A stretch of 64,000 nt of DNA, from the NCBI RefSeq assembly GCF_988243305.1, contig NZ_OZ547136.1. One strand, given 5' to 3'. The notes beneath the pieces were generated by a model that saw only the letters and a program-made list of their open reading frames with translations, was not told where the DNA came from and did not search any database. The first letter of the stretch is position 1. The number at the start of each line of letters is the position of its first letter. A program made the translations under genes and the position numbers. Positions 8,457 to 14,128 of this stretch are shown piece after piece.

Positions 8457-8732
8457 ATGAAAGTAAACTTAATGCTTTTTAGCTTATTTTTATTGGTCTC
8501 TATTATGGCATGCAATGTTTTTGCATTTTCTATTTCTGGTGGTGGTAGTGAGGCGAGCTATAAAGAGACGGAAAAAACGTCAGCGATGACGACAACTCAC
8601 TCTACAAAATTTCAGCCATCACAGGCGATTTTGTTAAAAATGAGAGAAGATGCGCCACCATTAAACCTCACAGAAGAAATTCCGCCCCCTTTTCCGACAA
8701 AGGCGAATTATCTTATCCATCCTGTGCGATAG
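8457..8732 (+). CDS. ypdI: Small putative lipoprotein YpdI
   Basis: 91 aa ORF; signal peptide ending in a lipobox-like ...IMAC. Confidence 0.7.
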   Translation: MKVNLMLFSLFLLVSIMACNVFAFSISGGGSEASYKETEKTSAMTTTHSTKFQPSQAILLKMREDAPPLNLTEEIPPPFPTKANYLIHPVR

Positions 8733-8808
8733 CGTCTGTCACACGGCAGGTGAACAATCATGTCTGATGCTGATGTGAACACCTGCCCAAATGAGCCATC
8801 CTGACCCA

Positions 8809-9051
8809 CTACCGCCTGCCATATCCCACCATAAAGCGAATCATCAAGCCACAAGCCGGGGCAAGAAACATAAATATCCCCGTCACCAGTTCATTACCGC
8901 CAGTTAACCACATGGTGAAGTAATAAATGAGTGCAGCGAGGATCACCATGCCGAAGAAAGAAGAGACCGCCGATACCACGTTCAGTACCTGACCGATGTA
9001 TCCGCTTACGCAGACAATACACAGGGCGAGAAACATCCATAAATAAATCAT
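8809..9051 (-). CDS. yfdY: Small inner-membrane protein YfdY
   Basis: 80 aa ORF with two predicted TM segments. Confidence 0.7.
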   Translation of the reverse strand: MIYLWMFLALCIVCVSGYIGQVLNVVSAVSSFFGMVILAALIYYFTMWLTGGNELVTGIFMFLAPACGLMIRFMVGYGRR

Positions 9052-9403
9052 AGCTCAACCTCCTGCCGCGCTAAAAAACCTGTAACTTCAGTCACTTTAA
9101 TAGTAAGACAATCCTTAACCTCTGGCAATTTTTGCTAAGCATCAATGAAAACAGCATGTTAAATGCAAGACTGTTGCGTACGGAAAAATATTTACTTTGC
9201 ACGATTAATAATCAGTAGCTGAAAGCAGTCAGCGAGTGATAAAGTACAGATACCGCATTCATGCTCCTCGTGGTTATGTCCTGACTAGTCTTTACACTCT
9301 TTACAGGAACCATTGTCGTACATGATGGCCTAATCAATTGAGTGTACCGCTGTCGACATGGAATCTTCTGCGATACAACAATTCGTATCTACAGAAGGTA
9401 ACT

Positions 9404-10324
9404 ATGTTTCCAAAATGCAAATTTTCCCGCGAGTTTCTGCATCCTCGCTACTGGCTCACGTGGTTTGGGCTTGGTGTACTCTGGCTTTGGGTACAGCTTC
9501 CTTATCCTGTTCTCTGCTTTCTCGGCACGCGTATTGGCGCAATGGCGCGACCATTCCTGAAACGGCGTGAATCTATCGCCCGTAAAAACCTGGAACTTTG
9601 TTTCCCACAGCATTCTGCGGAAGAACGCGAGAAGATGATTGCCGAAAACTTTCGTTCACTCGGCATGGCGCTGGTAGAAACCGGCATGGCGTGGTTCTGG
9701 CCCGACAGTCGCGTACGTAAATGGTTTGATGTTGAAGGGTTGGATAACCTTAAACGCGCACAAATGCAAAATCGCGGCGTAATGGTTGTCGGCGTCCATT
9801 TTATGTCGCTGGAACTGGGCGGCCGCGTGATGGGACTGTGCCAACCAATGATGGCTACCTATCGTCCACATAATAATCAGCTGATGGAATGGGTGCAGAC
9901 CCGTGGGCGCATGCGCTCTAACAAAGCGATGATCGGCAGAAATAATCTGCGCGGCATTGTCGGTGCACTGAAGAAAGGTGAAGCGGTATGGTTTGCTCCC
10001 GATCAGGATTATGGTCGTAAAGGCAGCTCCTTCGCGCCGTTCTTTGCGGTGGAAAATGTTGCCACAACCAATGGTACGTATGTCCTTTCACGTCTCTCTG
10101 GCGCAGCCATGTTAACCGTAACGATGGTAAGAAAAGCGGATTACAGCGGATATCGTTTGTACATCACCCCAGAGATGGAAGGCTACCCGGCAGATGAAAA
10201 TCAAGCCGCTGCCTATATGAACAAGATTATCGAAAAAGAGATCATGCGCGCACCGGAGCAGTACCTCTGGATCCACCGTCGCTTTAAAACGCGCCCGGTG
10301 GGAGAATCGTCGCTATACATTTAA
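9404..10324 (+). CDS. lpxP: Lipid A biosynthesis palmitoleoyl acyltransferase (cold-induced)
   Basis: ORF 9338-10324; I prefer the ATG at 9404 (MFPKCKFSREF...), preceded by AAGGT. LpxL/LpxP-family acyltransferase, 306 aa. Confidence 0.85.
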   Translation: MFPKCKFSREFLHPRYWLTWFGLGVLWLWVQLPYPVLCFLGTRIGAMARPFLKRRESIARKNLELCFPQHSAEEREKMIAENFRSLGMALVETGMAWFWPDSRVRKWFDVEGLDNLKRAQMQNRGVMVVGVHFMSLELGGRVMGLCQPMMATYRPHNNQLMEWVQTRGRMRSNKAMIGRNNLRGIVGALKKGEAVWFAPDQDYGRKGSSFAPFFAVENVATTNGTYVLSRLSGAAMLTVTMVRKADYSGYRLYITPEMEGYPADENQAAAYMNKIIEKEIMRAPEQYLWIHRRFKTRPVGESSLYI

Positions 10325-10679
10325 CAAACTGCTCTTACTCTTTCCCTCCTCAAATCAGCCATAATAACCTCATGGTTTTTATGGCTTTTTTCTTAAGGTT
10401 TTTTCCTTCGCTGAATCTCTAATTATTACCGTCAGAAATTAAACTGTCGCCGATATGAGACACCTGTAAGTTACTAAAAGTAAATAAGAAAATGCCTCTT
10501 GTCTCGTTTTAGTTTTAGGCGTACATTAGCGCCGTCTGGAGCAGTTTAGCTCAGAATTCTGGGGTGATGCCCACGGTAAAATACAGGACTTTTAAGGTCG
10601 TTTTGCCCGGTGTCAACTCACTGTATCAGGTGTAATGAAGTCATTCAGGCGTAACAGTAATTACGCGGAGAGATGTAAA

Positions 10680-10751
10680 GTGAAATATTTCTTTATGGGC
10701 ATTTCTTTTATGGTCATCGTTTGGGCCGGTACTTTTGCCCTGATGATCTAA
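10680..10751 (+). CDS. ypdK: Small hydrophobic protein (23 aa) YpdK-like
   Basis: GTG-initiated ORF V/M-KYFFMGISFMVIVWAGTFALMI with GGAGAG 7-8 nt upstream. Below the ORF-track cutoff; found by reading the lpxP-alaC intergenic region. Confidence 0.5.
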   Translation: MKYFFMGISFMVIVWAGTFALMI

Positions 10752-10815
10752 AAGCAAACTGTGCAATGAAAAACAGGAGCCATCTGGCTCCTGTTTGCAT
10801 TTCTGGCGATGGTGT

Positions 10816-12054
10816 TTATTCCGCGTTTTCGTGAATATGTTTGCTGCTGGCGGGTAGTAAACCGTCGGCACGGAACATCGCTTTAATTCCACGAATCGCC
10901 TGACGAATACGGTCGCGGTTTTCAATCAGTGCAAAGCGAACATGCGTGTCGCCGTAGTCGCCAAAGCCAATCCCCGGAGAGACACAGACCTTCGCTTCGT
11001 TCAGCAGCTTCTTGGCAAATTCCAGCGAGCCCATGGCAGCATACGGTTCCGGGATTTTCGCCCAGACATACATCGAAGCCTTCGGCATTTCGACCATCCA
11101 GCCCGCTTCATGCAGCCCTTTAACCAGTACATCACGGCGGCGTTTGTACTGTTCGGCAATATCGCGCACGCACTGTTGATCGCCCTCCAGCGCCGCAATC
11201 GCTGCCACCTGCAACGGCGTAAAGGTGCCGTAATCGTGATAGCTTTTAATACGTGCCAGCGCGCTGACCAGCGTTTTGTTGCCAACCATAAAGCCGATAC
11301 GCCAGCCCGCCATGTTGTAGCTTTTCGACAGCGTAAAGAACTCGACCGCCACATCGCGTGCACCCGGCACCTGCATGATTGACGGCGCTTTCCAGCCATC
11401 GTAGACGATATCGGCATAGGCCAGGTCATGGACCACCAGCACATCGTAGCGTTTCGCCAGCGCCACAACCTTCTCAAAGAATTCCAGTTCCACGCATTGC
11501 GCGGTTGGGTTCGACGGGAAGCCGAGGATCATCATCTTCGGTTTCGGATAACTTTCGCGAATGGCGCGTTCCAGTTCGTTGAAGAAATCGACACCTTCCA
11601 CCAGCGGCACTGAGCGTACCTGCGCCCCGGCAATCACCGCGCCGTAAATATGAATCGGGTAGCTTGGATTAGGCACCAGTACAGTGTCACCATGATCCAG
11701 CGTCGCCAGCATCAGATGCGCCAGTCCCTCTTTCGAACCAATGGTGACGATAGCTTCTGATTCCGGGTCGATCTCGACGTCGTAGCGATCCTGATACCAG
11801 TGTGAAATGGCGCGACGTAGCCGCGGAATGCCGCGTGAAGTGGAGTAACCATGCGTGTCCGGGCGCTGGGCCACCGTACATAATTTTTCGACGATGTGCG
11901 GCGGAGTCGCACCGTCCGGGTTACCCATACTGAAATCGATAATATCTTCGCCGCGCCGACGCGCAGCCATTTTCAGTTCAGCGGTAATATTAAAAACGTA
12001 GGGCGGGAGACGATCAATGCGCGTAAAGCGACGTTCAGGGCGAGTGTCAGCCAT
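10816..12054 (-). CDS. alaC: Glutamate-pyruvate aminotransferase (PLP-dependent, class I/II)
   Basis: 412 aa ORF with aminotransferase fold motifs (...[12 protein letters not shown]...). Confidence 0.9.
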
Positions 12055-12430
12055 AATTTCCTCAGATTAACGTTAGCGCCCGGACCGTCCGAGCGACGCT
12101 GCCACGATGGTGGCTGTTTTGAAAATAGCCTGATTAATTTCTGTCTGTCCAGCGTTTTAGAACATTTTTATCAATGGCTTTAAATGAGGAACGCCACTTC
12201 AAAAACAGGAAATTTATCTGCGCTAACAAGAAAATTACCACTCATTTTATTAACATTATAATTTCAATAAATTTACCAAGCAGATGTGCATTATCAAGAG
12301 ATGCATTGCTAATACACCATTTATCTTTCAATCCCCTTTTAAAATTGTGGTTTTTCCTCAAAAACGGCCTGCTGGTCATCAGCCTTCAGGTTACCTATCA
12401 TAGAGGTTTAATCCTTATTCAGAGTCACCC

Positions 12431-14128
12431 GTGCACGAAATATTCAACATGCTGCTGGCGGTCTTCGATCGGGCAGCGTTAATGCTTATCTGCCTGTTCT
12501 TTCTCATCCGTATCCGCCTGTTTCGCGAACTGTTGCACAAGTCGGCGCACTCCCCAAAAGAGCTGCTCGCTGTTACCGCCATTTTCTCGCTGTTCGCCCT
12601 GTTCAGCACCTGGTCCGGCGTTCCCGTAGAAGGCTCGCTAGTGAACGTTCGTATTATCGCGGTGATGTCAGGCGGGATTCTGTTTGGCCCGTGGGTAGGC
12701 ATCATTACCGGCGTGATTGCGGGTATTCACCGGTATTTAATTGATATCGGCGGCGTGACGGCGATCCCCTGCTTTATCACCAGCATTCTGGCGGGTTGTA
12801 TATCGGGCTGGATCAACCTGAAAATCCCCAAAGCACAGCGCTGGCGCGTCGGTATTCTCGGCGGCATGTTATGTGAAACGTTGACCATGATTCTGGTGAT
12901 TGTCTGGGCACCAACTACCGCGTTGGGGATCGATATCGTCTCTAAAATCGGCATTCCGATGATCCTCGGTAGCGTCTGTATCGGCTTTATTGTGCTGCTG
13001 GTGCAAAGCGTTGAGGGCGAAAAAGAGGCCAGCGCCGCGCGGCAGGCCAAGCTGGCGCTGGATATCGCCAACAAAACGCTGCCGCTGTTTCGCCATGTCA
13101 ATAGCGAGTCATTACGCAAAGTTTGTGAAATTATCCGCGATGATATTCACGCCGATGCGGTGGCGATTACTAATACCGATCATGTGCTGGCCTATGTCGG
13201 CGTGGGCGAACACAACTATCAGAATGGCGATGACTTCATTAGCCCGACTACCCGACAGGCGATGAATTACGGAAAAATCATCATTAAAAACAATGATGAA
13301 GCCCACCGCACACCAGAGATTCATTCCATGCTGGTGATCCCATTGTGGGAGAAAGGCGTTGTGACCGGAACGCTGAAAATTTACTACTGCCACGCGCATC
13401 AGATCACTTCCTCATTACAGGAAATGGCGGTCGGTCTGTCGCAAATCATCTCCACGCAACTGGAGGTTTCACGCGCCGAGCAGCTACGTGAAATGGCAAA
13501 TAAGGCAGAGCTTCGCGCCCTGCAAAGCAAAATTAATCCCCATTTCCTGTTTAACGCTTTGAACGCTATTTCATCGTCAATCCGTCTGAATCCGGATACC
13601 GCTCGCCAGCTGATCTTTAATCTGTCGCGTTATCTGCGCTATAACATTGAATTAAAAGACGATGAGCAAATCGATATCAAAAAAGAGCTGTATCAAATTA
13701 AAGACTATATTGCCATTGAGCAGGCCCGCTTTGGCGACAAGCTGACGGTTATCTATGATATTGATGAAGAGGTGAATTGCTGCATTCCCAGCCTGCTGAT
13801 CCAGCCGTTGGTGGAAAACGCCATTGTCCACGGTATCCAGCCTTGCAAAGGTAAAGGCGTTGTCACCATCAGCGTTGCAGAGTGCGGTAATCGGGTACGT
13901 ATTGCGGTGCGAGATACCGGGCACGGCATCGATCCAAAGGTGATTGAGCGGGTCGAAGCGAACGAAATGCCGGGCAATAAAATTGGCCTGCTGAATGTCC
14001 ATCATCGCGTGAAGTTATTGTATGGCGAGGGGCTGCATATCCGCCGCCTGGAACCGGGGACGGAAATTGCGTTTTACATTCCTAACCAACGCACCCCAGT
14101 CGCCTCACAGGCTACGTTATTGCTTTGA
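12431..14128 (+). CDS. ypdA: LytS-type sensor histidine kinase (pyruvate-responsive YpdA)
   Basis: 565 aa, GTG start; N-terminal multi-TM 5TMR-LYT domain, GAF-like region, His-kinase core. Confidence 0.85.

Follow-up and report, generated by a model that had tools for sequence, protein, structure and literature searches.

The 72 nt at 10680-10751 of the window (the whole 64,000-nt stretch of contig NZ_OZ547136.1 that was analysed) are ypdK, a known and very probably independently transcribed gene for a protein of 23 residues. The initial annotation had read here a GTG...TAA frame of 23 codons with GGAGAG 7 nt upstream, and both the letters and the translation agree with this reading exactly. 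It had also placed the frame between lpxP and alaC and had recognised in it the small protein YpdK of E. coli K-12. The K-12 genome (NC_000913.3) bears this out. There, ypdK (b4680, 'putative membrane protein YpdK') is annotated at 2496921-2496992, between lpxP (b2378) and alaC (b2379). Amino acids, nucleotides, position, strand, GTG start and Shine-Dalgarno (SD) sequence are the same in both, with no difference between them, and this is the same gene in another strain. The finding is right and not new. It adds nothing to what is known, since annotations have included ypdK from 2008-2009 onwards and virtually all E. coli genomes contain it.

The frame is a true microprotein gene that was recovered by reading the sequence where standard ORF thresholds miss it. 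The invariant GTG, the conserved promoter, the structured leader, the terminator shared with alaC and the linkage to alaC and pyrS, as described below, may help to assign a function to the orphan YpdK. Promoter, leader, terminator and linkage point to where the regulation of ypdK is encoded and to which neighbours matter.

Identity and reading frame of ypdK

The DNA from 10660 to 10760 is the K-12 sequence without any difference. The ypdK CDS annotated in DH1 and that of a strain with 100% identity to the window both map exactly onto 10680-10751 (Table 1), with WP_010723117.1 as the protein in each. The literal translation of these nucleotides is VKYFFMGISFMVIVWAGTFALMI followed by the stop codon at 10749-10751, and residue 1 becomes M on initiation. 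The 7 nt between the SD and the GTG (10673-10679) read ATGTAAA. The equivalog model for YpdK in NCBIfam (NF033437.1) gives the peptide 57.5 bits, where the cutoff is 30 (E = 9.4e-16), and residues 1-23 align to positions 1-23 of the 23 in the profile. The match to NF033437 is full-length and above the curated cutoff, the protein is identical to that of b4680, and its position is orthologous. The exact peptide bears the name YpdK in NCBI and UniRef (15-billion-protein collection).

The lpxP-alaC intergenic region (10325-10815) was used as a megablast query and matches 5422 of the 5426 complete E. coli genomes. All of the matches listed fall on a feature named 'ypdK: membrane protein YpdK'. Of 5423 E. 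coli records, 4771 have the 72-nt ORF at 100% identity to the window, and the whole intergenic region is at least 99% identical in only 814 E. coli records. That the frame had been missed by the ORF track, as the initial annotation stated, is plausible. An ORF list with a minimum of 20 aa gives the frame only inside a 38-aa ORF (10635-10751), and the default threshold of 60 aa would not list it. PMC3009722 counts ypdK among 18 newly found small ORFs that encode a putative single-transmembrane peptide, and credits it to Hemm et al.

Table 1. Features of the ypdK locus, with positions in the window.
Feature	Position	Strand	Remarks
lpxP	9404..10324	+	upstream neighbour in E. coli and a minority of other genera; outside the ypdK unit
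A-rich block, putative UP element	10476..10493	+	upstream of the -35; AAAAAAAT in most other genera; A-tract in most loci
Predicted -35 hexamer TTGTCT	10499..10504	+	TTGTCA in many genera; inside conserved CTCTTGTC
Predicted -10 hexamer TACATT	10522..10527	+	17 nt from the -35; followed by conserved GC-rich AGCGCC
Predicted ypdK 5' leader, ~146 nt	10534..10679	+	conserved helices; MAFFT alignment and covariance model
Helix H1	10535-10542/10549-10555	+	5' end of the leader
Helix H3	10561-10572/10608-10619	+	encloses the variable insert
Helix H5, weak	10642-10645/10672-10675	+	predicted pairing
Helix H4	10649-10654/10661-10666	+	abuts the SD
Shine-Dalgarno GGAGAG	10667..10672	+	7 nt before GTG; GGAG core in nearly all 76 loci
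ATG-TAA 'start-stop' (sequence pattern)	10673..10678	+	out of frame with ypdK; abuts the SD without a spacer
ypdK CDS	10680..10751	+	GTG start, 23 codons, TAA stop; product MKYFFMGISFMVIVWAGTFALMI
Hairpin ACAGGAGCC-ATCT-GGCTCCTGT	10773..10794		A-tract 5', T-rich tract 3'; between convergent ypdK and alaC
alaC (alanine transaminase)	10816..12054	-	convergent neighbour; only linkage to ypdK kept across Enterobacterales

Coding signature and predicted membrane product

For comparison, we used 80 loci from other Enterobacterales species that were anchored on alaC. In 75 of these, a YpdK ORF lies directly downstream of alaC and convergent with it. The other five are a locus at a contig edge (L005), a locus with a degraded copy (L070), and three loci without ypdK, from Serratia marcescens, Erwinia endophytica and Pseudomonas indica. 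Together with K-12, this gives 76 copies in genera that range from Escherichia to Pantoea, Erwinia and Serratia. Every one of these copies starts with GTG and none with ATG. The GGAG core lies 7-9 nt upstream of the GTG in nearly all of them, and it is invariant in the alignments of 35 leader sequences. Because the GTG, a weaker start codon, is so strictly retained, selection on the expression level or on local RNA pairing is suggested.

The 66 distinct nucleotide versions of the frame carry a protein-coding signature. The entropy at codon positions 1, 2 and 3 is 0.56, 0.17 and 1.12, with the third position the most variable, and the pooled pN/pS is 0.27 in frame as against 1.17 and 2.08 in the shifted frames. 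Judged from these versions, purifying selection acts on the protein encoded by the ypdK frame throughout the Enterobacterales, and translation starts at the GTG behind the conserved GGAG. Residues M1, Y3, M6, G7, S9, G17, T18 and F19 are invariant among the 41 protein variants. K2 is replaced by R only, W15 and M22 are near-invariant, positions 10-14 are occupied by differing hydrophobic residues, and core substitutions exchange one hydrophobic residue for another. Over the roughly 40 sequence variants, the conserved blocks can be written as MKY..MG.S and W.GTF..M. About half of the variants have one extra C-terminal residue, which is mostly E or K. Part of the near-invariance of codons 1-6 could stem from RNA structure near the start and not from protein function.

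In E. coli O157:H7 SS17 (L085; NZ_CP008805.1 3281173-3281235), the annotated YpdK is only 20 aa long and reads VKYFFMGISFMVIVWAGTFA up to the stop. The cause is the loss of 1 nt from the CCC run at codon 20/21, either a real frameshift or a homopolymer sequencing error. The degraded copy CEICLNGNFFFVLLWVGTFVLMLK at the ypdK position of Candidatus Pantoea haifensis (L070) has no GTG-K-Y start region and looks like a pseudogene.

The initial annotation had called the product a single-TM peptide, and the composition fits. YpdK has one charged residue (K2), a mean hydropathy (GRAVY) of 1.73 and a value of 2.12 in its best 19-residue window. On this composition, YpdK is probably a single-pass inner-membrane microprotein. 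An epitope-tagged form of the protein was reportedly detected by Hemm et al. in 2008. The coding substitution pattern and the tiling-array transcript described below indirectly support that YpdK is made. In essence, YpdK would consist of a single hydrophobic helix, with one positive charge at its N-terminal end (K2, replaced by R in some genera). From this arrangement and the positive-inside rule, we infer that it would insert as a single-pass protein of the inner membrane, with the N-terminus at the cytoplasmic face.

Several single-helix microproteins act on larger membrane proteins: AcrZ on AcrB, CydX on CydAB, KdpF on KdpABC, MgtS on MgtA and MgrB on PhoQ. Like these, YpdK has fewer than 50 aa, one predicted hydrophobic helix, and its own SD and start, and its sequence is conserved beyond what membrane insertion requires. 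By analogy with this class, the most likely mode of action is that YpdK would bind and modulate a larger membrane protein. We propose such a partner because the two conserved blocks exceed the needs of generic membrane anchoring. The mechanism is drawn from analogy since searches with the YpdK peptide gave no Pfam family at E <= 1 and no PDB chain. In contrast to the likeness in form, YpdK therefore has no sequence relationship to AcrZ, CydX, KdpF, MgtS or MgrB at that Pfam threshold, the CydX family included. Unlike kdpF or cydX, ypdK is also not in an operon with a candidate partner. A small cytochrome bd subunit of the CydX/YbgT type, which was raised by the N-terminal M-x-Y-F motif, was rejected; no Pfam family matched, nor did any chain in the PDB, cytochrome bd complexes included. 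The conserved residues were also tested for a common helix face (moment 0.17, permutation p = 0.29). The picture of one interaction face is unsupported because conservation is not confined to one side of the helix.

Predicted promoter, leader and 3' end

The region upstream of ypdK contains a block of fixed order, namely an A-tract, CTCTTGTCT, 17 nt, TACATT and AGCGCC, in which the -35 part has the general form CTCTTGTC(A/T). In 60 of the 76 loci, the strict pattern TA[CT]ATTAG precedes the GTG by 72-192 nt, and mostly by 120-165 nt. When the -10 pattern is relaxed to admit the TAAATTAG of Pantoea and Erwinia, the number rises to 73 of 76. A simple promoter scan missed this promoter because only 8 of the 12 hexamer positions match, which is under its threshold. 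Going by the conserved block, ypdK probably has its own sigma-70-type promoter. The upstream neighbours differ between loci, so the gene must have a promoter of its own. The A-rich block at 10476-10493 possibly acts as an UP element.

The positions of the -35 and -10 hexamers give a predicted transcription start near 10534. Transcription would start there, pass through the structured leader of ~146 nt, and end at the hairpin shared with alaC, and we consider this course probable. The tiling-array data of PMC3009722 give a plus-strand transcript that starts 148 nt upstream of ypdK (2494795 versus 2494943 in the coordinates of that paper), and the predicted 5' end agrees with this start at -148. 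The same transcript is listed in its supplementary file 3 with an induction of ~2-fold after UV.

The promoter was compared with rrnB P1, the sequence of which was read from K-12. Both have an A/T-rich upstream block, CTCTTGTC(A/T) at the -35 and a GC-rich discriminator; the discriminator region is AGCGCCGTC in ypdK and GCGCCACC in rrnB P1. They differ in the spacer (17 nt in ypdK, 16 nt in rrnB P1) and in the -10 hexamer (TACATT versus TATAAT). Read from the two sequences, the likeness would be one of promoter architecture only.

To describe the leader, 35 sequences from different genera and species were aligned with MAFFT. In this alignment, 91.7% of the cells are paired, as against 38-52% in slid controls, and 15 pairs are changed on both sides. 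The covariation score is 0.24, compared with at most 0.08 in the slid controls. Changes on both sides affect 7 of the 11 pairs of H3 and 5 of the 6 pairs of H4. The alignment supports helices H1, H3 and H4 with compensatory changes. A covariance model of the leader that was built on the aligned sequences (R1) finds a single copy in the window, at 10534-10682 with 106.7 bits. With the same model, the leader is also recovered from 13 held-out loci, among them Cedecea, Buttiauxella and Pseudocitrobacter. In this held-out set, 82.8% of the cells are paired as against 33-45% in slid controls, with compensatory change in 20 of 29 pairs; as the alignment was fitted to the covariance model, it leans towards structure. 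The R1 search did not find the leader in Pantoea, Erwinia, Mixta, Serratia or Mangrovibacter. A search of Rfam with the leader and transcript gave no credible family, only matches below threshold to a plastid UTR (24.3 bits, gathering 65.6) and a snoRNA (20.4 bits, gathering 48).

The GATG directly after the SD is conserved across Enterobacteriaceae, and in the window it gives rise to the ATG-TAA 'start-stop' at 10673-10678. In the predicted helix H5, it pairs with a conserved TTCATT (10640-10645 region) upstream of H4. In the minimum-energy fold of the window, the SD GGAGAGAUGU (10667-10676) pairs with codons 3-6, AUAUUUCUUU (10685-10694), and the GUG lies in the loop. Like the helices of RNA thermometers, this one is weak and contains many G-U pairs. 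Covariation cannot test this hairpin because all of its positions are invariant.

The 5' UTR of the neighbouring lpxP (~9338-9403 of the window) is described as a CspE-assisted cold-shock RNA switch (PMC13271884, 2025). The ypdK leader resembles this and other structured leaders that act on the translation of enterobacterial mRNAs, as a conserved 5' UTR with helices that flank or would sequester the SD and start. We consider it possible, though short of probable, that the ypdK promoter and leader form an undescribed cis-regulatory RNA element, which could be a translational switch, a thermosensor, or a docking site for an sRNA or protein. If this is true, an undescribed leader family would control a microprotein, and the conservation of ypdK, alaC and ypdA (pyrS) as a block would hint at a role in connection with pyruvate/alanine physiology.

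In E. coli SCPM-O-B-8794 (L004), the leader is 33 nt shorter than that of the window. The inner portion of its H3 insert is lost, and yet it scores 83.8 bits with the leader model. LpxP of this strain is only 96% identical, and the strain may belong to a divergent Escherichia lineage. An upstream ORF within the leader (10564-10635, 23 aa, MMPTVKYRTFKVVLPGVNSLYQV, after the SD-like GGGGTGATG) was also considered. It is probably not a gene because the variable insert in which it lies is rich in indels, and Klebsiella and Enterobacter lack its start.

At the 3' end, a GC-rich hairpin lies between the stop of ypdK (10751) and that of alaC (10816). It folds better than shuffled sequences on both strands, with z values of -3.5 and -2.6. 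Nearly all loci have an equivalent GC-rich hairpin whose stem differs in sequence (e.g. CAGGCGCC and GGGGCGAC). Because an A-tract on the 5' side and a T-rich tract on the 3' side flank it, the hairpin at 10773-10794 is likely a bidirectional intrinsic terminator for ypdK and alaC. A simple terminator scan did not report this shared hairpin. The sole result of the scan, a terminator-like match at 10711-10728, was disregarded as it lies inside the ypdK ORF.

The spacer between ypdK and alaC has grown from ~50 nt to 150-700 nt in five loci (L020, L030, L039, L047 and L078). There are further strong hairpins in the expanded spacers of L020 and L030, and the longest insert, of 701 nt, is found in Serratia bockelmannii (L078). 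The inserts may be repeat elements or genes.

Neighbours and alternative readings

An LpxP-like gene lies upstream of ypdK in only 20 of the 76 loci. Elsewhere, the upstream genes are unrelated, lie on either strand, and are 100-1500 nt (mostly 200-700 nt) away. An lpxP operon with ypdK at its distal end was therefore rejected as a general model. A block of ypdK, alaC and ypdA (pyrS) is conserved (10816-14128 region of the window; loci L004-L083). The gene ypdA adjoins alaC divergently in 63 of the 75 ypdK-positive loci. By this gene order, the conserved linkage of ypdK is to alaC and ypdA/pyrS, and not to lpxP.

The co-occurrence of ypdK, alaC and ypdA gives rise to the idea that YpdK serves the pyruvate-sensing histidine kinase YpdA (PyrS) as an accessory or regulatory subunit, in parallel to MgrB on PhoQ. 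Besides the divergent arrangement in 63 loci, it is in keeping with this idea that the alaC loci of S. marcescens, Erwinia endophytica and Pseudomonas indica have neither ypdK nor ypdA in the flank, and that sensor kinases are often the targets of small single-helix proteins. Nevertheless, we hold it to be improbable. Shared ancestry confounds the co-occurrence, no ypdA lies within 2.5 kb in 12 of the ypdK-positive loci, and we know of no experimental link between YpdK and YpdA. A near-match to the YpdB/PyrR box within ypdK (GGCATTTCTT, 10698-10707) is at chance level and was rejected, with 6 matches in the window versus 7.8 expected. Unlikely, too, is that the functional unit is mainly RNA. 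The ypdK transcript of ~265 nt would then be regulatory or dual-function, with its 3' end facing alaC and the ORF secondary. The leader has about double the length of the ORF and is conserved, with covarying helices; conservation is stronger in the promoter than at many coding positions, and the transcript converges on alaC with a terminator common to both. The UV induction in the tiling-array study would also suit an RNA role. A structured leader is, however, equally expected of a cis-regulated mRNA. No complementarity of the ypdK RNA to a target was identified, and Rfam holds no family for it. The ORF has the signature of a protein, with its low in-frame pN/pS of 0.27, its third-position variation, the replacement of K2 by R only, and its conserved SD and start. 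These features argue for ypdK as a gene for the 23-residue protein.

It is very improbable that the true product is instead a 38-residue protein beginning MKSFRRNSNYAERCKVKYFF at the ATG at 10635. This ATG is in frame with ypdK without a stop between them, and ATG is a stronger start codon than GTG. But an in-frame ATG at -45 is present only in two Escherichia loci, while in most other genera there is a stop in frame or no start at this place. The ATG at 10635 has no SD, and the extension would lie inside leader helices H4 and H5. Of the 38-aa form, the NCBIfam model aligns to no more than the last 22 residues, and all annotations start ypdK at the GTG. We give practically no credence to a chance intergenic ORF that has been propagated by annotation. 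Chance ORFs are indeed abundant, and 74 of at least 20 codons overlap the 4.5-kb region at 8500-13000. Against this, 75 loci, which range from Escherichia to Pantoea, Erwinia and Serratia, retain the frame with substitutions of the coding type; on these comparative coding data, the reading is already refuted. On both strands of the 64-kb window, there are 57 ORFs of 20-50 codons with an SD-like 4-mer 5-10 nt upstream, and ypdK is the only one of them with a GRAVY of at least 1.5.
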